Of a stretch of 32,000 nt of DNA, positions 1 through 14,647 are shown piece after piece. Below the pieces are notes generated by a model. That model worked only from the letters and a program-made list of their open reading frames with translations. It ran no database searches and was not told the origin of the DNA. A program made the position numbers and the translations under genes. The DNA is taken from NCBI GenBank assembly GCA_943370175.1, contig CALRPU020000010.1, positions 61,984-93,983 of the forward strand, read 5' to 3'. Each line of letters starts with the position of its first letter. Position 1 is the stretch's first letter. The DNA comes from Hydrogenophaga intermedia (GTDB lineage Bacteria > Pseudomonadota > Gammaproteobacteria > Burkholderiales > Burkholderiaceae_C).

Positions 1-570
1 CAGCAGCAGGTTGCCGCCGCCCACGCCCTTGACCAGCGGCGTGGTTTCCTGGGCCACGAACTCGCCGTCCATCACCGGCACGCGCCAGTAGCGCACGCCC
101 TGGATCACCTTGGACGATTGCCAGCCGTCGCCGAAGAAGCGCAGGTTCTTGCCCAGCGCCATCGGTTCGCCAGCGGACAGTGGCAGTCCGGCGTACACCG
201 CGGTGGTGGGGCAGGTCAGCACGCACTGGCCGACGCGGCGTTCGATCTGCTTGGCCAGCTCCTTGCTGGACACCGCGAAGAACAACAGCGCCACGCCCGG
301 GCGACCGTCGGGTGTTTCGTCCGGGGCCAGCACGCGTTCGATGCCGGCCTCGCAGCCGCAGGCGATCACCGAGGTGGCAAAGCCGGTGGCCGCCACGCCG
401 GCGTGCATCGCCCAGGTGGGGTGATGGGCGGTGACGATCAAGCGCGTTGCACGCATCGGGAAGGCTTCGGCGAAGGTCGCGTCAATCGCGACGCCGTTGA
501 GCACGCAGGGTGCCGCCGGCGTGGGCGTGTCAGCGTTCGCCGCCGCGCGGGCGCTCACGGTGTCGGCCAT
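1..570 (-). CDS. fhcD: Formylmethanofuran--H4MPT N-formyltransferase (Fhc complex subunit D), N-terminal 190 codons; the 3' end lies beyond the window start
   Basis: My own minus-strand translation from the ATG at 570-568 gives MADTVSARAAANADTPTPAAPCVLNGVAIDATFAEAFPMRATRLIVTAHHPTWAMHAGVAATGFATSVIACGCEAGIERVL... This has Ftr/FhcD-type N-terminal motifs (IDxTFAEAF, GFATSVIxCxCEAGIE). The start forms an ATGA overlap with the fhcA stop, and the frame stays open to position 1. It is absent from the ORF track because it is truncated. Confidence 0.85.
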   Translation of the reverse strand, partial: MADTVSARAAANADTPTPAAPCVLNGVAIDATFAEAFPMRATRLIVTAHHPTWAMHAGVAATGFATSVIACGCEAGIERVLAPDETPDGRPGVALLFFAVSSKELAKQIERRVGQCVLTCPTTAVYAGLPLSAGEPMALGKNLRFFGDGWQSSKVIQGVRYWRVPVMDGEFVAQETTPLVKGVGGGNLLL

Positions 571-2252
571 CAGGCGGCCCTCGGAAAGCACTCGGCGGGC
601 AGCAGGCGCCCGCCATTGCAGCAGCGGCACAGCTCGTCGTGGCCGATGACCTGGTAGCGGGGCGCGTCGCGCAGGTGGCGCTCGGCGAAGCGGCGCACGG
701 TGGCGGCGATGCCGGCGTCGACCTGCGGCGTGGCGAAGTGGGTGCCGCCGGTGGGCACGGCCACCACGCGGCCCTCGCGCACCACCACCTGGCCGTCCTT
801 GAGCACCCAGGCCGGAGTGCTGAACATGGTCTCGGCGTCGCCGCCTTCCCGGTAGACCGCGATGTCGGCGCCGGCGCCGTCGCCCAGGTGGCCGCGGTCG
901 CTCAGGCCGAGCAGCCGCGCCGGGGCGCTGCGGGTGAGGATGGCGATTTCGTACAGCGTCAGCTCGCGGCGGATGTCTTTCAGCGCCGACTGCGCGGCCA
1001 CGTCCGGGTGCAGCCGGGCGAGCTGTTCGTCGCGGAAGGTCTTGTCCATCAGCAGGCGGATCAGGTGCGGGTAGCTGGTGAAGGGCGCGCCATTCGGGTG
1101 GTCGGTGGTCAGCACGATGCGCCAGGGGTCCTCGACCAGCAGGAACAGCTCCAGCCCGATGGCCCATTGCAGCGCGTTGACGTAACTGGTCTCGCGGTAC
1201 TTGAAGGGCACCACGCCGCAGCCGGCATCGCATTCGATGTCGCCGCCCAACCATTTGCGCGGGCTGCCCAGGTCGGCGTTGGCGTGCTGGCGCATGGTGT
1301 CGCCGCTGGCCGTGACCGTCTGGTTGAACAGGATTTGCCCGACGTCGATGGACACGTTGGGCGTGGCGTTGACCTTCTCTGCCAGCCGCAGCGCGGCCGA
1401 CGAGAACTTCTTGGGCCCGTCCTGGCCATAGGAGTGAAACTGCACGTGGGTCAAATGACCGCGAAAGCCGTCCAGCGCGTCGATGGTGGCGATCGTGGAG
1501 TCGATGTTGCCGGGCACGCCCAGGTTGCTGCTGTGGATGTGCAGCGGGTGGGCCAGGCCCAGCTCGTGGATGGCGCGCGCCAGCGAGCCCAGGATCTGCC
1601 GCGGCGTGAGTTCCCAGTGGCGGTGGGGCTCGTCCACGTCCAGCTTTCGCTGGTTGAACTTGAAGGCCGAGATGCCACCCGGGTTCACCACCTTCACGCC
1701 CATCGCCTTGGTGGCGTGTACCACGTGGCCGACGTAGTCGCGCATCAGCTCAGGCGGCGCGCCGCTGTGCAGCAGCCTCAGGAACAGCTCGTCGTTGCCC
1801 AGCATGACGTAAGCGCCGTGGTCCAGGATCGGCACGTCGCCCATTTCCAGGTGCGTGTGGCGGGCGTTGACCGCGGCCATCGCGGGCTCGAAAGCGGCGG
1901 TGTAGCCCATCTCCGCGTAGCGGTAGCCGGTGGCCAGCGTGCCGGGCACGCAGTCGCCGCAGCTGGGCAACTCCAGCGCGTTGCCGCTGAGTGGAAAGGG
2001 GTCGAGCCCGCGCCGGTGGTCTTCGGGCAGCAGCAGCCGCGCGAGGTTCATCTTGCCGCCGCCGATGTGGCTGTGCATGTCGATGCCGCCGGCCATGACG
2101 ATGCAGCCGCGGGCGTCGATGTCCTGGTCCACCGGGGCCAAAGGGTCCAGCGCCACGATGCGCCCGTCGCGCACGGTGACGTCGCGCGTGTCGCCGTTGA
2201 CGCCGTGCACCGGGTCGATGACGCGGCCGCCGCGCAGTCGCAAGGTGCTCAT
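570..2252 (-). CDS. fhcA: Formylmethanofuran dehydrogenase subunit A homolog (formyltransferase/hydrolase complex subunit A), amidohydrolase fold
   Basis: The 560-aa ORF MSTLRLRGGRVIDPVHGVNGD...GGIDMHSHIGGGKMN... has the FwdA/FhcA amidohydrolase signature. It sits between fhcB and fhcD with 4-nt overlaps at both ends. Confidence 0.95.
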   Translation of the reverse strand: MSTLRLRGGRVIDPVHGVNGDTRDVTVRDGRIVALDPLAPVDQDIDARGCIVMAGGIDMHSHIGGGKMNLARLLLPEDHRRGLDPFPLSGNALELPSCGDCVPGTLATGYRYAEMGYTAAFEPAMAAVNARHTHLEMGDVPILDHGAYVMLGNDELFLRLLHSGAPPELMRDYVGHVVHATKAMGVKVVNPGGISAFKFNQRKLDVDEPHRHWELTPRQILGSLARAIHELGLAHPLHIHSSNLGVPGNIDSTIATIDALDGFRGHLTHVQFHSYGQDGPKKFSSAALRLAEKVNATPNVSIDVGQILFNQTVTASGDTMRQHANADLGSPRKWLGGDIECDAGCGVVPFKYRETSYVNALQWAIGLELFLLVEDPWRIVLTTDHPNGAPFTSYPHLIRLLMDKTFRDEQLARLHPDVAAQSALKDIRRELTLYEIAILTRSAPARLLGLSDRGHLGDGAGADIAVYREGGDAETMFSTPAWVLKDGQVVVREGRVVAVPTGGTHFATPQVDAGIAATVRRFAERHLRDAPRYQVIGHDELCRCCNGGRLLPAECFPRAA

Positions 2253-3571
2253 GGCGCGACCTCGCTCAAGGCCGCGGCCGTTGGGGGCGCGCTCAAGGGC
2301 GGCATCGCGCTCAACAACCGTTGCAGCACCGTGGCCACGCCCGGCAAACCGTCATCGCGAACGGCCACCAGGGGCAGCACGATGGAGCCATCGGTGCGGA
2401 ACAGGTGGCCCGCGGCGTTCCAGCCGGGGGTGGCCACCGGGATGAACACGGTGGGCGGCGCGCCGCTTGCCGCCGCCAGCCGCGGGCCCATGCCCGGTGG
2501 CCCGAGCACGATGCGTGGCAACGCGGTCGGTGGCGGCAGGCGCTCGGCGTCGAAGCTGGCGATCCACAACAGGCCGTCGACCGCGCCTTGGCCGATCAGG
2601 CGCTCGGTGGCCATCGCGTGGGGCTCGTGCTGCAGGCCCTGGCGGCTGACCCGCGTGCGCAGCGGCAGGCCCGACAACCAGGTCAAGGTCTGGTTGACGC
2701 TGTACGCGCCGTCGCTGCCGCCCAGCGACATCACCGCCGCGCGCGTGCGGCGGTTGAGCGTGCCCACCACGCGGTTGAGCATTTCAATGGACAAGGCCGC
2801 TGGCGCGCGGAGCGCCGAGGCCTCGTAGACGAAGACGGCATACCGCGCGGCGCGCAGTTGCCGAGCCAGCTCGGCCAGCGCGGGGTCGGCGCCGGGCACA
2901 CGGCGCTCGTCGACCAGGGCCGACAGCTGTTGCAGGTCGCCCGCCAGGTCCACGCGCGCCGGCATGGCCTGCACCGACGTCACACCGCTCAGACCCGACG
3001 GCGCCTCGGTGCCGAGGAAGACCACCGCGGCGCAGGGGCTGGCGGTCTCCCCCAGGCCGGCGCGGCGGAAAAACTCGGGGTAGCGATCAATGCCGTTGCT
3101 GCCCACCATCACCAGCAGGTCGCAGCGGCTGCGCAGTTCGCCCAGCGTGGTCGTGAATTGGCCGCGGTCCTGCAGGGCGCGCACGCCCTGCATCAGCGGC
3201 TCGCCGTCGGCGTGGTCGCAGATGGCGTCGCAGCGGGCGGCCAGCGGGAACAAAGCGCGGGCCCCGGCGATGTCCGTGCCCAGGCCGGCGAACAGCGGCT
3301 GGCGCCAGAGCGACAGCCGGGCGGCGGCGTTGGCGATGGCCTCGTCCAGGTCGGTGGGTCGGCCGTCCACGGTGGGCTCAGCCGGGCCGCCACCGAGCGC
3401 GGCCAGGCGGTGGCGTGCCTTGACGCAGGGGCCGCCCCGCTCGCCCAAGCCGCCCACGTCGGGCCGCAGGTCATCGCACAGCAGGCTGCAAAACGGGCAG
3501 GTCCAGCCGCTGTCGTCGGGCGGCGGCCCGGCGGCGGTCAACCCAGGGTCGGCGGAAACAGTGAAAGTCAT
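2249..3571 (-). CDS. fhcB: Formylmethanofuran dehydrogenase subunit B homolog (Fhc complex subunit B)
   Basis: The N-terminus MTFTVSADPGLTAAGPPPDDSGWTCPFCSLLCDDL carries the FwdB/FhcB Cys cluster, and the stop forms an ATGA overlap with fhcA. I chose the ATG at 3571, 207 nt inside the track ORF 2249..3778. The upstream extension is Arg/Pro-rich and looks non-coding. The start is uncertain because no SD precedes it. Confidence 0.88.
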   Translation of the reverse strand: MTFTVSADPGLTAAGPPPDDSGWTCPFCSLLCDDLRPDVGGLGERGGPCVKARHRLAALGGGPAEPTVDGRPTDLDEAIANAAARLSLWRQPLFAGLGTDIAGARALFPLAARCDAICDHADGEPLMQGVRALQDRGQFTTTLGELRSRCDLLVMVGSNGIDRYPEFFRRAGLGETASPCAAVVFLGTEAPSGLSGVTSVQAMPARVDLAGDLQQLSALVDERRVPGADPALAELARQLRAARYAVFVYEASALRAPAALSIEMLNRVVGTLNRRTRAAVMSLGGSDGAYSVNQTLTWLSGLPLRTRVSRQGLQHEPHAMATERLIGQGAVDGLLWIASFDAERLPPPTALPRIVLGPPGMGPRLAAASGAPPTVFIPVATPGWNAAGHLFRTDGSIVLPLVAVRDDGLPGVATVLQRLLSAMPPLSAPPTAAALSEVAP

Positions 3572-3585
3572 CGTCACGGCGGAAG

Positions 3586-3600
3586 GCAAGGCATGTGCCA
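3586..3600 (-). promoter_or_regulatory. Candidate sigma-54 (-24/-12) promoter for fhcB-fhcA-fhcD
   Basis: The reverse complement reads TGGCAC-ATGCC-TTGC, an exact match to TGGCAC-N5-TTGC. It is the only exact match I found by eye on either strand. It lies in the 483-bp non-coding gap upstream of fhcB, and a sigma-54 activator is encoded in the window. Confidence 0.55.
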
Positions 3601-3729
3601 CGAAGGCGGCACCGGCCGAGGCGACGCGCCCCGGGTGTCGCTGCATTCTGGACCGCGGCGGGCGACCGCAGGGCCATCGCTGGCGCGACCGCGGGTTTCC
3701 CTGGGGCCGCTCGCCGCCTGTGCCGTCCT

Positions 3730-3746
3730 TGCCACACTGTGCGGCA
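3730..3746. promoter_or_regulatory. 17-bp near-palindrome TGCCACAC-T-GTGCGGCA, candidate activator binding site (UAS 1)
   Basis: 7 of 8 arm positions pair. It lies about 130 bp upstream of the -24 element at 3600 and is enclosed by a perfect 8-bp inverted repeat, GCCGTCCT (3722-3729) / AGGACGGC (3759-3766). Confidence 0.4.
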
Positions 3747-3770
3747 CAGGGCTTGCCAGGACGGCCGTCG

Positions 3771-3787
3771 TGCAACACTGTGTGGCG
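3771..3787. promoter_or_regulatory. Second copy of the 17-bp motif, TGCAACAC-T-GTGTGGCG (UAS 2)
   Basis: 14/17 positions are identical to the site at 3730-3746, and the two share the core ACACTGTG. Centres are 41 bp apart, about four helical turns. Confidence 0.4.
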
Positions 3788-4054
3788 CTGGGCCGCGCGG
3801 CCAATTGACGGTGACGACCCGCCTCACCGTGTCAACCTGTGGTGACACCCGGCCGCCGGCCGCGGGGCGCGGCGGTGGCACGGAACGTGATGGAGTCCAG
3901 GCAGACAGGGGACGTGGAATGAACCAACGTGGCGGACGGCAAGCGAGCAATGAGGCGGGTTGACGGCGTGGCCATGGCGGGACTGCGGGCGCGGCTCGGG
4001 CCGGTCTGCCGCGGTGGTGGCGGTGGCGCGGTCGTGGTCGCGTGGTCGGCTGGC

Positions 4055-4813
4055 TCAACCCGGGTCGTCGAGCCGGCCGTCGTGCAAAGCGCTGGCCACC
4101 AGCCAGGCATGGGCGCCCGCCGCGGCGGCCTGGCGCAGGTCGCTGGGCTGGCGGACGCCGCCGGCGCCGATCAGGCGGCGGCCGGGGGCGCGGTCGCGCA
4201 CCGTGCCGAAGGTGTCCAGGTCGGGGCCGCTGTCCGCGCCGACGCGGTCCAGCGTCATCACGATCAGCGTGGCCGGCCAGAGGTCGGCCCGCGCCCAGCA
4301 GCCGGCGGGGTCGAGCGCGCGCTGCTGACGGCAGTCCAGCGACAGGACCGCCTCAGGCTGGTTGCCAAGCGCGGCGAGGTCGCCGATGCGCTGGATCGAT
4401 TCGCTGCCATGGACCGGGCGCAGCGCCACGCCATCGGCCGGTTGGATGCCCTGCGCCGCCGCTGTCGCTGCCGCCGCGTTGGCAAAGCCGCCGTCCAGCC
4501 ACAAGCTCAGGCCTGGCCAGTCCGCGGCCAGGGCCTGGGTCAGTGCGTGCAGCAACCCATGCTGCACCCCGCGGCCCAGGATGCCGTCCAGGTCGGCGAC
4601 GTACAGCACCGGTTGCAGTTGCTGGCAGGCCGGGTGTGCCAGCAGCGCCCGGGCCAGCGTGATGGGGTCGTGGCCCGGGGCGAGCATGGACCGCATCGGC
4701 CGATAGTGGCCGCGTTCGCCCCGCACGGCGCGCACCACCTGACCGGCCTGCAGGTCAAGCACGGGGATGACTGGCGTGGGCCGGGCTGAGGACGTCAAGG
4801 GCATGAAAAGCAT
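4055..4813 (-). CDS. HisA/HisF-family (beta/alpha)8-barrel protein of the type found in H4MPT/methanofuran gene islands
   Basis: TPVIPVLDLQAGQVVRAV...VADLDGI...SLDCR...IGAGGVRQPSDL is the HisA/HisF-like phosphate-binding barrel pattern. An alternative start is the ATG at 4804 (MPLTSS...). Confidence 0.72.
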   Translation of the reverse strand: MLFMPLTSSARPTPVIPVLDLQAGQVVRAVRGERGHYRPMRSMLAPGHDPITLARALLAHPACQQLQPVLYVADLDGILGRGVQHGLLHALTQALAADWPGLSLWLDGGFANAAAATAAAQGIQPADGVALRPVHGSESIQRIGDLAALGNQPEAVLSLDCRQQRALDPAGCWARADLWPATLIVMTLDRVGADSGPDLDTFGTVRDRAPGRRLIGAGGVRQPSDLRQAAAAGAHAWLVASALHDGRLDDPG

Positions 4814-5792
4814 TCTCGTCTACGAGCACCTCAGCGGCGGCGGCCCGATGGCCAGTGAGGCCGAGGCGGCGGAGCTGCTGCCTCAGGGCGTGGCCATGCG
4901 CGACGCCGTGGTGGCCGACCTGATCGACGTGCCTGGGTTGCGGGTGGAATGCGCGGTCTGCGCGCGTGCCGGCTCGGGCGCGCCGCGCGGCGCGCGCCCG
5001 GTGGTCGCCGAGCCCGGCGAGCCGCCCGCGGTGTTCCTGCGCCGGCAGGCGCGGGGCATCGACCTGGTGTGGGCCATCGCGCCCGAGGGCGATGGCGTGC
5101 TGGCCGACTTGCAGCGCGCCGTTGGCGACGAACGTTGGGTGGGGTGCAACCTGGCTTCGATCACGACGGCGTCGAGCAAAGCCGCCACGCTGAAGGCGTT
5201 GCAGGCCCGCCGCGTCCCCACGCCGCTGGACCACGCGGCGCGCGCGCGGCGCTGGGTGGTCAAACCCGATGACGGTGCGGGCGCCATCGACACCCGGGTC
5301 TTCCCGTCACACGCCGATGCGCGCGCCTGGGCCGAGGCGCGCGGCGCCGCTGGCCAGCGCATGGTGGTCGAGCCCTGGGTGGACGGCGAGGCGCTGTCGG
5401 TGTCGCTGATGGTCGGGCCGGGCTGGGTGCAGGCCCTGGCCTTCAATCGCCAGCGGCTGGAGGAAGGGCCCGATGGCCTGCTGCATTTTGCTGGCGTCGA
5501 CGTGGCCGCCATGGACCCGCAAACCGACCCGCGCGCCCTGCGCCTGCACCTGCTGGCGCTGGACGTGGTGCGGGCGGTGCCTGGCCTGTGCGGCTTTGTC
5601 GGCGTGGACGTGGTGTGGCACGCCGAGGATGGCCCGGTGGCCATCGAGCTGAACCCGCGCCTCACGTCGGCCTATGTGGGCCTGTCGCGCACGCTCGGCC
5701 GCAACCTGGCCGCCGAGGCGCTTCGCGCGCACGACTTGGCGCGCGCGGCTTCCCGGACCGACGGCAACGGCGAGGTCGCCCATGCCCGCTGA
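4803..5792 (+). CDS. ATP-grasp ligase, MfnD-like (tyramine--L-glutamate ligase family; methanofuran biosynthesis)
   Basis: The start MKSILVYEHLSGGG is typical of this ATP-grasp clade, and the C-terminal GFVGVDVV...PVAIELNPRLT is an ATP-grasp motif. The ATG at 4803 lies inside the track ORF 4767..5792. Confidence 0.62.
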   Translation: MKSILVYEHLSGGGPMASEAEAAELLPQGVAMRDAVVADLIDVPGLRVECAVCARAGSGAPRGARPVVAEPGEPPAVFLRRQARGIDLVWAIAPEGDGVLADLQRAVGDERWVGCNLASITTASSKAATLKALQARRVPTPLDHAARARRWVVKPDDGAGAIDTRVFPSHADARAWAEARGAAGQRMVVEPWVDGEALSVSLMVGPGWVQALAFNRQRLEEGPDGLLHFAGVDVAAMDPQTDPRALRLHLLALDVVRAVPGLCGFVGVDVVWHAEDGPVAIELNPRLTSAYVGLSRTLGRNLAAEALRAHDLARAASRTDGNGEVAHAR

Positions 5793-6951
5793 CGAGCCCC
5801 CTGACCTCACCTGGGGCTGGGACCTGGGCGGCGCCCACCTGAAGGCCTGCCGGTTGGAGCGGGGGGTCGTGGTGGACGTGGCGCAATGGGCATGCCCCCT
5901 GTGGCAGGGGCTGCAGCACCTGGACGCGGCACTGGCCCAGGCGCGCGCACGCTGGCCCGACTTGAACGGGGCGCCCGGGCGGCGCGCGCGGCAGGCGGCC
6001 ACGATGACGGGCGAGATGGTCGACCTGTTCCGCGACCGCGAGGACGGTGTGCTGCGCCTGGCCGCCCACCTCGACCAGGCCCTTGGCGGCGGCTTGCATT
6101 GGTTTGCCGGTCGCGGGCTCGGGTCGGCCGTCGGTCTGGCGTTGCCCTGGCAAGCCGCGTCGCGCTGGGTGGGGCCTGCGGCGGTGCCCGCGCACTGGGA
6201 GGCCATCGCCTCGGCCAACTGGCGCGCCACCGCCGAGTGGCTGGCGCTGGCCCTGGACCGCCGGGCGGCGGCCCCGGCGGGCGCCGTGCTGGTGGACATC
6301 GGCAGCACCACCAGCGACCTCATTGCGCTGCGCGGTGGCCGCCCGCTGGGCCGGGGGCAAACCGATGCCCAGCGCCTGGCCAGTGGCGAGCTGGTCTACC
6401 AGGGGGTGGTGCGCACGCCGCTGTGTGCGCTGACGCAGCGCGTGGTATTTCAGGGTCAGGCCACGGGCGTGATGAACGAATGGTTTGCCACCACCGCCGA
6501 CGTGCACCGCTTGCTCGGCACGCTCAACCCCGCCCACGACCAACAGCCCACCGCCGACAACGCGGGCAAGGACCTGCCCGCCACGCGCCAGCGGCTGGCC
6601 CGGATGATCGGCCGCGACGCGCGCGACGGCCACGACGGCGACTGGCTGGCCTTGGCTGCCCAATGGCGCGACGCCCAGCGGTCGGCCCTGCAAGATGCCG
6701 TGACCCGCGTGGTGGCCGATGCGGGCCTGACGGGCGCGCCCACGCTGGTCAGCGCGGGCTGCGGCGAAGTCTTGGTGCCGGCGTTGGCGCAGGCCCTGGG
6801 TTGGCCGGTTCTACGTTTCGCCGACCAGGTGCCCTGGGCGACCAAGGCGTCGGACGCGCTGATGGGCTGGGTTCAGGTGGCGGCGCCGGCGGTGGCCGTG
6901 GCGCTGCTCGCGGGCGGACCGCATCAGGACGAGGATTCAATGAACGATTGA
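5782..6951 (+). CDS. Hydantoinase/oxoprolinase-like H4MPT-linked C1-transfer pathway protein (MfnF-like)
   Basis: WGWDLGGAHLKA...TMTGEMVDLF...VDIGSTTSDLI matches the ASKHA/hydantoinase-A-like pattern of the family found in these islands. The ATG at 5782 overlaps the previous gene by 11 nt. Confidence 0.62.
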   Translation: MPADEPPDLTWGWDLGGAHLKACRLERGVVVDVAQWACPLWQGLQHLDAALAQARARWPDLNGAPGRRARQAATMTGEMVDLFRDREDGVLRLAAHLDQALGGGLHWFAGRGLGSAVGLALPWQAASRWVGPAAVPAHWEAIASANWRATAEWLALALDRRAAAPAGAVLVDIGSTTSDLIALRGGRPLGRGQTDAQRLASGELVYQGVVRTPLCALTQRVVFQGQATGVMNEWFATTADVHRLLGTLNPAHDQQPTADNAGKDLPATRQRLARMIGRDARDGHDGDWLALAAQWRDAQRSALQDAVTRVVADAGLTGAPTLVSAGCGEVLVPALAQALGWPVLRFADQVPWATKASDALMGWVQVAAPAVAVALLAGGPHQDEDSMND

Positions 6952-12404: not shown

Positions 12405-14468
12405 TCAGCCCGCCTGGGTCACGGGAATGTGCAACTTGTGCATGCGCCGGTACAGGGTGTTGCGGCTCACGGCCAGGTCCTTGGCCACCTGGCTGACGTT
12501 CCAGCGGTGCGATTCCAGCAGGTCCAGCAGGTCCTGGCGCTCCTGGGCCTGGGCCGGCCCCAGCGCGGGCGCGTCGTCTTGGGCTTCGACGGGGTCGTGC
12601 GCAGCCAACGGCCCGCTGCCGGGCACCCGTGCCCGCGCGCCTTGCAGCGAGGGCAGGTGCTCCGGGGTCAGCGTGCCGCCGTCGGCCAGGGCCACGCCGC
12701 TGCGCAGCACGTGGCGCAGTTGCCGCACGTTGCCGGGCCAGGGGTGGTGCATCAGCAGGTCCCAGGCGGCGGGGCTCACGGGGGCGTCGGGGGCGCCCTC
12801 GGCGGTCAGCAGGTCGCGGATCAGCTGGGCCCGGTCGCTGCGTTCGCGCAGCGCCGGCAGGTTCAGCTCGATGCCGGCCAGGCGGTAGTACAGGTCTTCG
12901 CGGAAGCGGCCTTCGGCCACCAGTTGCGGCAGGTGACGGTGGCTGGCGCTGAGCAGCTGGAAGTCCACCGGGTGCGCCTCGTCCGTGCCCAGCGGGGTGA
13001 CCATGCGCTCGTCGAGCACGCGCAGCAGCCGCGCCTGCAGTGCCAGCGGCATGTCGCCGATTTCGTCGAGGAACAGCGTGCCGCCGTCGGCCTGCGCGAT
13101 CTTGCCGCGCCGCCCGCGCCGCTCGGCCCCGGTGAAGGCCCCGGCGCGGTAGCCGAACAACTCCGCCTCGATCAGGTTCTCGGGCAAGCTGGCGCAGTTG
13201 ATGGCGACGAAGGGGCCGTCGTGACGTGGGCTGCCGGCGTGAACCGAGTGGGCAAACACCTCCTTGCCGACCCCCGTTTCGCCGCACAGCAGCAGCGGCG
13301 TGCCGCGCGCGATGACGCGCCGCGCGGTGGCCAGGTGGGTTTGCAGCCGCGGGTCGCCGTAGGTGGCGGTGGGCGGTGCTGCGCGGTGGGCAGCACTGGA
13401 CGCGGTGCCGGACACCACCAGCGCGGTCGGGCTGGCGTGGCCTCCGCCCAGGGCCGTGGCCCCCGCGCGGCCGTTGAGCATCGACCGGCGCCCGGGCGTC
13501 GCCGCTGGGTCGTCGGCGCTGCGCAGCGCGCTCGGCTCGTCGTGCGCGGGTTGGCGCGCCACCGCAAAAAAGCGGTGTGCCGCGTTGGCGCGGTAGGTCA
13601 CCACCGGGTGGAAGCTCGCGCGCTGGCTGCGCTCCAGGATGTCGTCCAGCGTGGTCTGAAAGATCTCGTCCAGCCGGCGTCGGCGCACCTCGCGCACGGA
13701 GTTCAGGCCCAGCTGGAACAACGCACTGCGGTTGGCGGCCAGCACCTGGCCCTCGTGGTCGACGATCAGCTTGCCTTCGTGCAGCGTGTAGACAAACTCG
13801 GGGCGGCTGTGGAAGTGGATCGGGTGGGCGTCGCGGAAGCGGTGGTCGATCAGCCGGTTTTCGATCATCCGGGCCGTCATGCCCAGCAGCACCAACAGGT
13901 GCTGCTGCGACATCTGCGAGCGGCTGGTGACGTCCAGCACCGCGCACATTTCGCCCGCCGGGTCGTAGACCGGCACGGCCGAACAAGTCAGTTGCGCATA
14001 CTGGGTAAAAAAGTGCTCATCCAGGCGCACCGCGATCGGCGCGGCCGCCGCCACGCAGGTGCCCATGCCGTTGGTGCCGGCCTCGGCCTCGCTCCAGACC
14101 GCGCCCACCTGCAGGCCCAGGGGTGCGGCGTTGCGCTCGAATTCCGGCGAACTGACCATGTGCAGGATGACGCCGGCGGTGTTGGTCAGCACCACGGCCG
14201 ATTCCGGGTCGCCCAGCTGCTGGTACAGCGTGGTCATTTCGTAGCGCGCGCAGTCGATCACGTCGGCCATGCGGGCGTGGTGGCTGGACAGCTCGTCGCG
14301 GCTGAGCACCGGCGGGCGCCGCGGCTGGCGCGGGTCCAGCCGGTACTGGTTCAGGCACCGGGCCCAGGAATGCGCGACGACGTCGCTGGTGGTGTCGCTG
14401 GCGCCGCGTGCAACCACGTCAAGAATCCGGTCGGCATGCCGATGGGGTTCATGCAGCGAGGTGGACAT
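12405..14468 (-). CDS. Sigma-54-dependent transcriptional activator, AcoR-like (N-terminal GAF-type sensor, AAA+ domain, C-terminal HTH)
   Basis: It carries Walker A GETGVGKE, the sigma-54 contact loop GAFTGA, Walker B GGTLFLDEIGDM, PWPGNVRQL, and the C-terminal HTH NVSQVAKDLAVSRNTLYRRMHKL. The N-terminal region has GAF-like sequence (GTNGMGTC...VPVYD..GE..AVLDV). Confidence 0.92.
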   Translation of the reverse strand: MSTSLHEPHRHADRILDVVARGASDTTSDVVAHSWARCLNQYRLDPRQPRRPPVLSRDELSSHHARMADVIDCARYEMTTLYQQLGDPESAVVLTNTAGVILHMVSSPEFERNAAPLGLQVGAVWSEAEAGTNGMGTCVAAAAPIAVRLDEHFFTQYAQLTCSAVPVYDPAGEMCAVLDVTSRSQMSQQHLLVLLGMTARMIENRLIDHRFRDAHPIHFHSRPEFVYTLHEGKLIVDHEGQVLAANRSALFQLGLNSVREVRRRRLDEIFQTTLDDILERSQRASFHPVVTYRANAAHRFFAVARQPAHDEPSALRSADDPAATPGRRSMLNGRAGATALGGGHASPTALVVSGTASSAAHRAAPPTATYGDPRLQTHLATARRVIARGTPLLLCGETGVGKEVFAHSVHAGSPRHDGPFVAINCASLPENLIEAELFGYRAGAFTGAERRGRRGKIAQADGGTLFLDEIGDMPLALQARLLRVLDERMVTPLGTDEAHPVDFQLLSASHRHLPQLVAEGRFREDLYYRLAGIELNLPALRERSDRAQLIRDLLTAEGAPDAPVSPAAWDLLMHHPWPGNVRQLRHVLRSGVALADGGTLTPEHLPSLQGARARVPGSGPLAAHDPVEAQDDAPALGPAQAQERQDLLDLLESHRWNVSQVAKDLAVSRNTLYRRMHKLHIPVTQAG

Positions 14469-14490: not shown

Positions 14491-14632
14491 ACCATTCAAG
14501 CGGCGCAGTGTGGCCCAAAATGCCCCTGGTGCCTTGCGCAATTGCCCTGATGCGGGCGCGAGGCAAGGCGGCTGCGGGTTATCCCGTAAACGTGCCGACA
14601 GCGCACCACCCGCGCGCCGCCAGCCACGCCGA

Positions 14633-14647
14633 TGGCCCACAAGTTGC
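14633..14647 (+). promoter_or_regulatory. Candidate sigma-54 (-24/-12) promoter for the folB-like/mptG/mtdB/mch operon
   Basis: TGGCCC-ACAAG-TTGC matches 9 of 10 consensus positions, with the GG and GC correctly spaced. The leader would be about 45 nt, running to a strong GAGGAGGAG RBS and the ATG at 14705. Confidence 0.45.

Follow-up and report, generated by a model that had tools for sequence, protein, structure and literature searches.

The window analysed here, a stretch of 32,000 nucleotides from Hydrogenophaga intermedia (contig CALRPU020000010.1), carries on its minus strand the genes fhcB, fhcA and the beginning of fhcD, and the subject of this work is the sigma-54 (RpoN) promoter element that lies immediately upstream of fhcB, together with the kind of mRNA that it would produce. 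All coordinates are those of the window, and d denotes the number of nucleotides from the -12 C of the promoter to the A (or G) of the start codon. The sequence TGGCACATGCCTTGC, read from 3600 to 3586 on the minus strand, corresponds to TGGCAC-ATGCC-TTGC and matches the sigma-54 consensus at 10 of 10 positions; it is separated from the fhcB ATG (3571-3569) by cttccgccgtgacg, which leaves 15 nt between the -12 C (3586) and the A of the start codon. A first-pass annotation of this DNA had described an exact sigma-54 match with the correct spacing, the only one on either strand, situated in a 483-bp non-coding gap at about 15 nt from an ATG that lacks a Shine-Dalgarno (SD) sequence, with a gene for a sigma-54 activator in the neighbourhood. 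These observations were borne out: the element reads as described, a scan of both strands of the window detects TGGCAC-N5-TTGC a single time, the gap spans 3572-4054, the distance counts as 15, the activator gene is present (Table 1), and the 16 nt that precede the ATG pair with the anti-SD at -2.4 kcal/mol, a background value. The same annotation had left the choice between a leaderless-type transcript and a wrong call of the start codon or of the promoter; the comparative data reject the latter and support the former. We regard the element as very probably a functional sigma-54 promoter of the fhcBADC operon, and we consider it likely that fhcB is expressed in a sigma-54-dependent manner from an mRNA with a leader of 0-4 nt, on which FhcB synthesis is initiated in a leaderless-type fashion.

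The presence of a lone exact match in the window is not significant by itself, given that 0.16 matches are expected by chance in 32 kb and that 14 of 100 shuffled sequences contained at least one; the number of motifs with one mismatch (three in the window against 4.4 expected) is uninformative. In the whole genome there are 15 exact matches, i.e., one per 648 kb of strand, and the probability that one of them falls on the correct strand within a given 483-nt gap is approximately 7e-4. The rpoN gene of this genome is intact (G000:C3:63341-64846), since its product reaches 443 bits with TIGR02395, for which the cut-off is 277, and no internal stops are present. As the single match is insufficient, it is the conservation across orthologous loci that led us to accept the element beyond chance.

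The fhcB loci used in this comparison came from relatives, from a set with one genome per GTDB species (80 loci) and from one metagenome contig. Scoring of orthologous fhcB upstream regions, a check already proposed in the first-pass annotation, revealed that, of the 83 informative loci, which belong to Burkholderiales and Rhodocyclales, 79 carry the element TGGCA(C/T)-N5-TTGC, with 8-10 of 10 positions matched, directly upstream of fhcB, with an in-frame start codon at d=12-18. The genera that show this arrangement include Ramlibacter, Rubrivivax, Methylibium, Piscinibacter, Rhizobacter, Ideonella, Azohydromonas, Caldimonas, Variovorax, Paraburkholderia, Caballeronia, Cupriavidus, Ralstonia and Thauera. 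The values of d are narrowly distributed, with 34 loci at 15, 26 at 14, eight at 13, five at 16, four at 12, and one each at 17 and 18, and they differ by lineage: Cupriavidus and Ralstonia have 12, Paraburkholderia and Caballeronia 13, Thauera and Ramlibacter 14, and most members of the group formed by Rubrivivax, Methylibium and Piscinibacter 15. The start codon is ATG in 74 of the 79 loci (94%) and GTG in the other five, all of them from Ramlibacter, in genomes with approximately 65-70% G+C. The spacer itself is not conserved, since 76 of the 79 sequence contexts are unique. Likewise, the invariant WTCPFC motif of the protein is separated from the start by 2 to 24 residues, depending on the locus; because this distance varies while that to the promoter stays within 12-18 nt, the fhcB start codon tracks the promoter and not the protein core. 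Start codons annotated in RefSeq, which are independent of our locus scan, agree with this layout in Aquabacterium olei (d=15) and Azoarcus sp. KH32C (d=14), and both fhcB copies of Paraburkholderia phymatum share it (d=13 and d=14).

The arrangement is not universal to fhcB. It is absent from three lower-GC Methylophilaceae-like relatives that belong to other families of the same order (L006-L008), from a relative of another genus of the same family (L004), and from Azospirillum, where fhcB is an internal gene. Among the exceptions within the informative set, L016 has 132 nt between the -12 C and the WTCPFC codon and no start codon at d=10-20; L046 has an ATG at d=15 that is out of frame, possibly as a result of an assembly error; and in L031 a second conserved element (element 2, described below) takes the place of the canonical promoter, with forward orientation and 13 nt upstream of the fhcB start codon, an ATG.

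The absence of an SD sequence is also a property of the whole set of loci. The best duplex energy between the 16 nt preceding the start codon and the anti-SD CACCUCCUUU was computed, with intergenic DNA of the same loci as background. For fhcB the mean energy was -2.66 kcal/mol (79 loci) versus -2.83 for the background (p=0.98), and for fhcA it was -7.0 kcal/mol (78 loci, p=7e-26). Other strong sigma-54 sites of the H. intermedia genome, located before transporter and receptor genes, show d=31-59 and are followed by GGAG-type SD sequences of -5.8 to -11.6 kcal/mol; fhcB is therefore atypical among the sigma-54 genes of its own genome.

According to the -24/-12 naming convention, the GC of a sigma-54 promoter is placed at about -12 to -14, and the +1 of nifH is found 12 nt after the C in Klebsiella pneumoniae and 13 nt after it in Sinorhizobium meliloti. 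To place the transcription start of fhcB, this textbook numbering was used together with differential RNA sequencing (dRNA-seq) of Campylobacter jejuni, where the sigma-54 motif (...tTGCTt) ends 8-13 nt before the transcription start site (TSS), so that the C is located some 10-15 nt before +1 (PMC3847290). Judging from this promoter geometry, fhcB start codons at d=12-18 would fall at about +1 to +4. If transcription starts at the first purine with d>=12, a leader of 0 nt is predicted for 41 of the 81 loci, one of 1-2 nt for 31, and one of 3-4 nt for nine. The immediate context of the start codon is also constrained: at positions -1 and -2, an A or T is hardly ever found, with C or G present in 76 and 71 of the 79 loci, respectively, and position +4 is an A in 62 of 79. 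The first 36 nt counted from the ATG are weakly structured (-5.4 versus -12.8 kcal/mol for internal windows), a feature that fits an accessible 5' end and that is not specific to leaderless genes. Following the definition that Beck and Moll 2018 are cited for in PMC12754779, in which a leaderless mRNA usually has a leader of <=5 nt, the predicted fhcB mRNAs would count as leaderless.

Published data connect this operon with RpoN in another member of the group. In P. phymatum STM815, Bphy_6505, annotated as formylmethanofuran dehydrogenase subunit A, showed a log2 fold change of -3.5 in nodules formed by an rpoN mutant as compared with those of the wild type, and it was included among the genes positively controlled by RpoN (PMC5979394, Table 3); the induction of this gene and of Bphy_6506 during symbiosis has also been reported (PMC5748707). 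Bphy_6505 is fhcA. Plasmid pBPHY01 carries two fhcB copies; the one on the plus strand has its in-frame ATG at d=14 from CGGCAC-GGACC-TTGC, and fits the ascending order of 6505 (fhcA) and 6506 (fhcD); the other is preceded by TGGCAC-ATGAG-TTGC at d=13. In our literature searches, no TSS mapping was found for any of these fhc operons, nor a description of sigma-54 control of tetrahydromethanopterin (H4MPT) genes, nor a paper on the regulation of the H4MPT pathway in Burkholderiales and Rhodocyclales.

A candidate activator is encoded in the window by a gene for an enhancer-binding protein with GAF, AAA+ (Sigma54_activat) and HTH_8 domains. Full-length orthologues with 60-69% identity are present on the fhcB contig at approximately 7 kb from fhcB in Rubrivivax gelatinosus and at 16 kb in Ralstonia pickettii; the coordinates of the orthologue of Ramlibacter alkalitolerans (69%) would correspond to a distance of about 7 kb, provided that it shares a contig with fhcB. 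The upstream regions of fhcB contain in turn an ACA-N3-TGT palindrome, which in its extended form reads GC(C/G)ACAC(A/T)GTGT(G/T)GC, is detected in 65 of 81 loci at a density of 4.6 per kb versus 0.05 per kb in flanking DNA (about 90-fold), and is most commonly placed 64-65 nt upstream of the T of TGGCAC. A genome-wide search for this palindrome beside sigma-54 sites returned essentially the fhcB promoter alone. In Thauera, where the activator relatives are only 40% identical, the palindrome is also missing; this co-variation supports, without proving, that the palindromes are sites of the GAF-type activator. A second sigma-54-type promoter of the same island serves the folB-like/mptG/mtdB/mch operon, and a related half-palindrome, GCGCAGTGTGGC, is present at ~14503-14514, about 120 nt upstream of that promoter and near the activator gene. 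This operon and fhcB probably respond to one and the same activator.

Two other elements were noticed in the gap. One is the already mentioned element 2, with the consensus CACG-N3-C(G/A)TGCCA, which precedes the real -24 element by 100-350 nt; its reverse complement, TGGCAYG-N3-CGTG, has the appearance of a sigma-54 site with a perfect -24 half and no -12 GC. The other is a weak sigma-54-like site, TGGCCCTGCGGTCGCC, at 3661-3676 on the minus strand, which matches at 8 of 10 positions, has the proximal palindrome of the window at the canonical -69, and is followed by an in-frame ATG (3646) at d=16. Since sites of this score arise by chance once per 2.4 kb of strand, it was treated as a chance match; it is possible that it represents a decayed twin of the promoter-ATG module.

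From these results the following mechanism is proposed, in which we infer the exact TSS, the leaderless translation, the identity of the activator and of its ligand, and the insulation from read-through. The enhancer-binding protein, most likely the GAF-AAA+-HTH protein encoded at 12405-14468, would bind ACACAGTGT-type palindromes upstream of the promoter and, in response to an inducing signal that is probably formaldehyde or a metabolite derived from one-carbon (C1) compounds, would remodel the closed complex; that the ligand is formaldehyde or a related C1 signal is a guess. Transcription would then begin 12-15 nt past the -12 C, at the A of the fhcB ATG or 1-3 nt before it, and would yield an mRNA devoid of a usable leader or SD, on which FhcB would be initiated by recognition of the 5'-terminal AUG; fhcA, fhcD and fhcC would be translated through ordinary SD-dependent or coupled initiation. 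Efficient translation of fhcB would be restricted to the transcripts of this promoter, because on read-through RNA from upstream the internal SD-less AUG would be a poor start. The leaderless option is favoured because there is no selection for an SD, because 94% of the loci start with ATG, and because fhcA depends on RpoN in P. phymatum.

Several points weigh against this proposal. GTG is a poor start codon for leaderless mRNAs in E. coli, and it is used by the five Ramlibacter loci. With the canonical spacing (C at -12/-13), the modal d of 14-15 would give a leader of 1-3 nt and not a strictly 5'-terminal AUG, and Krishnan et al. 2010 reportedly found that short 5' extensions reduce leaderless translation in E. 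coli. About 11% of the loci have an SD-like match in the spacer, a proportion at the level of chance. The P. phymatum data were obtained from nodules, and the effect of the rpoN mutation could be indirect. Moreover, the palindromes of the window are unusually far from the promoter, at ~142-145 and ~183-186 nt from the -24 T, with their centres ~165-205 nt from the predicted start, and what connects the putative activator with them is synteny and a shared motif.

An alternative that concerns the start codon is that it was mis-called and that FhcB begins at ATG 3646 (or GTG 3778), in which case the motif would be intragenic, either a chance match or an intragenic sigma-54 site such as those known in E. 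coli. The frame is indeed open up to GTG 3778, with in-frame start candidates at 3778, 3775, 3646, 3601, 3589, 3577, 3571 and 3541, and ATG 3646 is placed 16 nt past the weak site at 3661-3676; nevertheless, stop-free frames are expected in DNA with 69% G+C, and the region homologous to all relatives starts at residues 8-23 of the protein initiated at 3571. The start at d=12-18 is the sole start position common to all loci, and because d is often not a multiple of three (44 of 79 loci), the motif cannot be conserved coding sequence. A stop codon interrupts the frame between the -24 element and the ATG in 12 of the 81 loci, and 47 of the 81 lack any in-frame ATG farther upstream. The upstream ATG 3646 was rejected as the fhcB start, given that it is not conserved as coding and that the extension is blocked or unsupported in most loci. 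The gene call of the genome record itself, a product of 440 residues starting at 3571, and the RefSeq calls in relatives take the ATG at d=14-15, and of all the explanations considered a mis-called start is the least probable.

If the start codon and the sigma-54 promoter are both accepted, it could still be that most of the translated fhcB mRNA has a leader, produced from a farther promoter or by read-through from the HisA/HisF-like gene, and that the SD-less ATG is used as a non-canonical internal start that relies on S1, on standby binding or on the accessibility of the start codon. The weak structure after the ATG would also favour SD-independent internal initiation, and a search of 3400-4200 for Rfam RNAs, sigma-70-like promoters and terminator-like sites found none, so that nothing resembling a terminator separates the HisA/HisF-like gene from fhcB; the weak sigma-54-like site, 76 nt upstream, also speaks for this alternative. 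Against it, the same search provides no sigma-70-like promoter in the gap from which such a leader could start, and the weak site is of the kind expected by chance. A leadered mRNA leaves unexplained the fixed distance of 12-18 nt to the ATG, while the distance to the protein core varies 12-fold, as well as the 94% of ATG starts, and for these reasons we consider it an unlikely explanation, although one with more weight than the others. It could also be thought that the element is mainly a brake, i.e., that a stable closed complex of sigma-54 sits on the start codon and that productive transcription comes from elsewhere; the sigma-54 holoenzyme forms stable closed complexes without its activator, and the site overlaps the translation start region. 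This possibility is very improbable, since the expression of fhcA falls and does not rise in the rpoN mutant of P. phymatum, the site occurs together with upstream palindromes and a conserved gene for an activator, and no alternative promoter was detected. A leaderless-type mRNA initiated at the sigma-54 promoter is the reading that we prefer.

The coordinates of the features are collected in Table 1. The product of fhcB matches TIGR03129 (E=4.9e-42), yet it is under the equivalog cut-off, and it also matches the structures PDB 6S6Y_B (FhcB) and 5T5I_B (FwdB). Its N-terminal Cys-rich segment, WTCPFCxLLC, is kept in betaproteobacteria and aligns with the N-terminus of archaeal FwdB (5T5I_B, from residue 8 onward); FhcB from Methylorubrum extorquens (6S6Y_B) lacks this segment, and its alignment begins at residue 68 of the protein encoded in the window. 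In a relative with 88% identity (L090), fhcC is the next gene after fhcD. Several open reading frames (ORFs) of the window that had been taken as genes in a first guess (4755-5234, 5307-6323 and others) gave no family matches, and are probably spurious frames of GC-rich DNA.

Table 1. Coordinates of the fhc genes and of the regulatory features in the 32,000-nt window
Feature	Position	Strand	Remarks
fhcD, 5' part	1..573	-	Cut by the window edge; start near 570-576, approximate
fhcA	570..2252	-	4-nt overlap with the fhcB stop (ATGA); own SD
fhcB, formylmethanofuran-dehydrogenase subunit B homologue, 440 aa	2249..3571	-	Start ATG 3571-3569, no preceding SD
Predicted transcription start zone	3571..3574	-	Candidates A3574 (d=12), G3572 (d=14) and A3571 (d=15, A of the ATG); leader 0-3 nt
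Sigma-54 core promoter	3586..3600	-	-24 GG 3599-3598; -12 GC 3587-3586; GG and GC 10 nt apart
Proximal palindrome ccgCACAGTGTGgca	3730..3746, core 3734-3742		One mismatch; second candidate upstream activating sequence (UAS), 41 bp from the first
Distal palindrome gccACACAGTGTtgc	3771..3787, core 3775-3783		Candidate activator-binding site (UAS)
Conserved element 2 CACGTTCCGTGCCA, reverse complement TGGCACGGAACGTG	3876..3889	-	Present in 36/81 fhcB loci
HisA/HisF-like gene	4055..4813	-	Upstream of fhcB, same strand, 483-nt gap between them
GAF-type sigma-54 enhancer-binding protein (GAF, AAA+ Sigma54_activat, HTH_8)	12405..14468	-	8.8 kb from fhcB; candidate activator
Second sigma-54-type promoter of the island, TGGCCC-ACAAG-TTGC	14633..14647	+	Predicted leader ~45 nt (d=59); SD GAGGAGGAG at -11.6 kcal/mol

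Sigma-54 promoters are the tightest on/off switches known in bacteria, and leaderless mRNAs represent a distinct mode of initiation via a 5'-terminal AUG; to our knowledge, they have usually been studied in different phyla, and the phyla that are rich in leaderless mRNAs largely lack sigma-54. The fhcB promoter resembles glnAp2, nifH, Pu, hyc/hyp (with the GAF-type FhlA) and aco (AcoR) in that it has the -24 GG and -12 GC of TGGCAC-N5-TTGC in a genome with rpoN, and it shares with classical sigma-54 promoters the upstream palindromes and a candidate AAA+ activator with a GAF sensor and HTH_8 encoded nearby. It differs from them in that the start codon is placed at the predicted +1 to +4 without an SD, an arrangement conserved across the order, whereas the sigma-54 promoters that we know of generally have leaders of tens of nucleotides with an SD. 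Leaderless mRNAs of the sigma-70 type are exemplified by lambda cI, tetR of Tn1721, and many genes in Actinobacteria, Deinococcus-Thermus, Caulobacter and S. meliloti. With these, fhcB has in common the predicted terminal or near-terminal AUG, the absence of an SD, the strong preference for AUG and the fixed short distance between promoter and ORF; in contrast to them, its promoter is of the -24/-12 type and would be activator-dependent. In the sigma-70 case, -10 boxes adjacent to ORFs have been described (PMC12340547). The closest published hint that we found is astC from E. coli, which would have a very short leader given that Zhao et al. 2010 (PMC2831329) list its sigma-54 motif at -35 to -18 relative to the start of translation; there, the -12 C is ~21 nt from the start codon and the leader would have roughly 9 nt, and the case concerns a single species and was not discussed as leaderless. 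No paper joining leaderless mRNAs with sigma-54 was found in the literature searches, which included the searchable TSS-mapping papers.

Regarding the genes themselves, fhcCDAB from M. extorquens (PDB 6S6Y) encodes the same formyltransferase/hydrolase complex of the H4MPT formaldehyde-oxidation pathway; however, the gene order is different and fhcB is not promoter-proximal. In Azospirillum, fhcB is internal to an operon whose first gene has a normal SD. In sequence, this is an ordinary sigma-54 promoter, and judged by its predicted 5' end the mRNA would be an ordinary leaderless one; the unusual feature is the combination of both and its conservation.

That this layout has been kept in ~80 genomes suggests selection for joining activator-dependent transcription to the translatability of the first cistron. 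The arrangement also provides a directly testable model for the induction of H4MPT-dependent formaldehyde oxidation in Burkholderiales and Rhodocyclales, and a compact and tightly regulated expression part, i.e., a promoter without a 5' untranslated region, for engineering these bacteria. A warning for gene callers is that start prediction based on the SD has no signal at fhcB, and yet the promoter fixes the start codon. A broader idea, namely that sigma-54-initiated leaderless mRNAs are a general and overlooked expression class in Betaproteobacteria and not a peculiarity of fhcB, is put forward only tentatively, as we find it rather doubtful. In such a class, with start codons at +1 to +4 of -24/-12 promoters, the first gene would be translated strictly from transcripts whose initiation is driven by the activator, read-through RNA would stay untranslated, and 70S-type initiation might become possible when the canonical route is compromised, e.g., by formaldehyde stress. 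Hints of such a class are the spacing of ATGs after sigma-54-like sites and a second candidate operon, both given next.

In the H. intermedia genome there are 334 sigma-54-like sites with at least 9 of 10 matches, and the ATGs that open ORFs of at least 150 residues downstream of them peak at d=12-15, with 3, 2, 6 and 4 sites, respectively, versus ~1.4 per position elsewhere; some of these are surely due to chance. Among the candidates are an ANTAR regulator resembling NasT (C2:62086-62721, d=15) and a 601-residue exported protein (C32:45837-47642, d=14). A second candidate for a leaderless sigma-54 operon is located at G000:C12:119945-121010 on the minus strand, where a gene for an ABC-transporter ATPase, which lacks an SD, has its ATG at d=14 from TGGCACGGCGCTTGCG, with TTTTGTAC(A/G)CAA direct repeats upstream; in the orthologues of two other genomes (L095 and L096), the sigma-54 motif is kept at d=15 and d=17. 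The mpl gene (MHIHILGICGTFMGG..., G000:C5:110546-111974, minus strand) has no SD, shows an in-frame stop 9 nt upstream, and is preceded by a TAGAAT hexamer that ends 6 nt before the ATG; such a layout resembles that of leaderless genes of the sigma-70 type, so that this mode of expression is probably not uncommon in H. intermedia. The 16-mer CGGCACGCCCCTTGCC of mpl also precedes another gene, at C25:36503.

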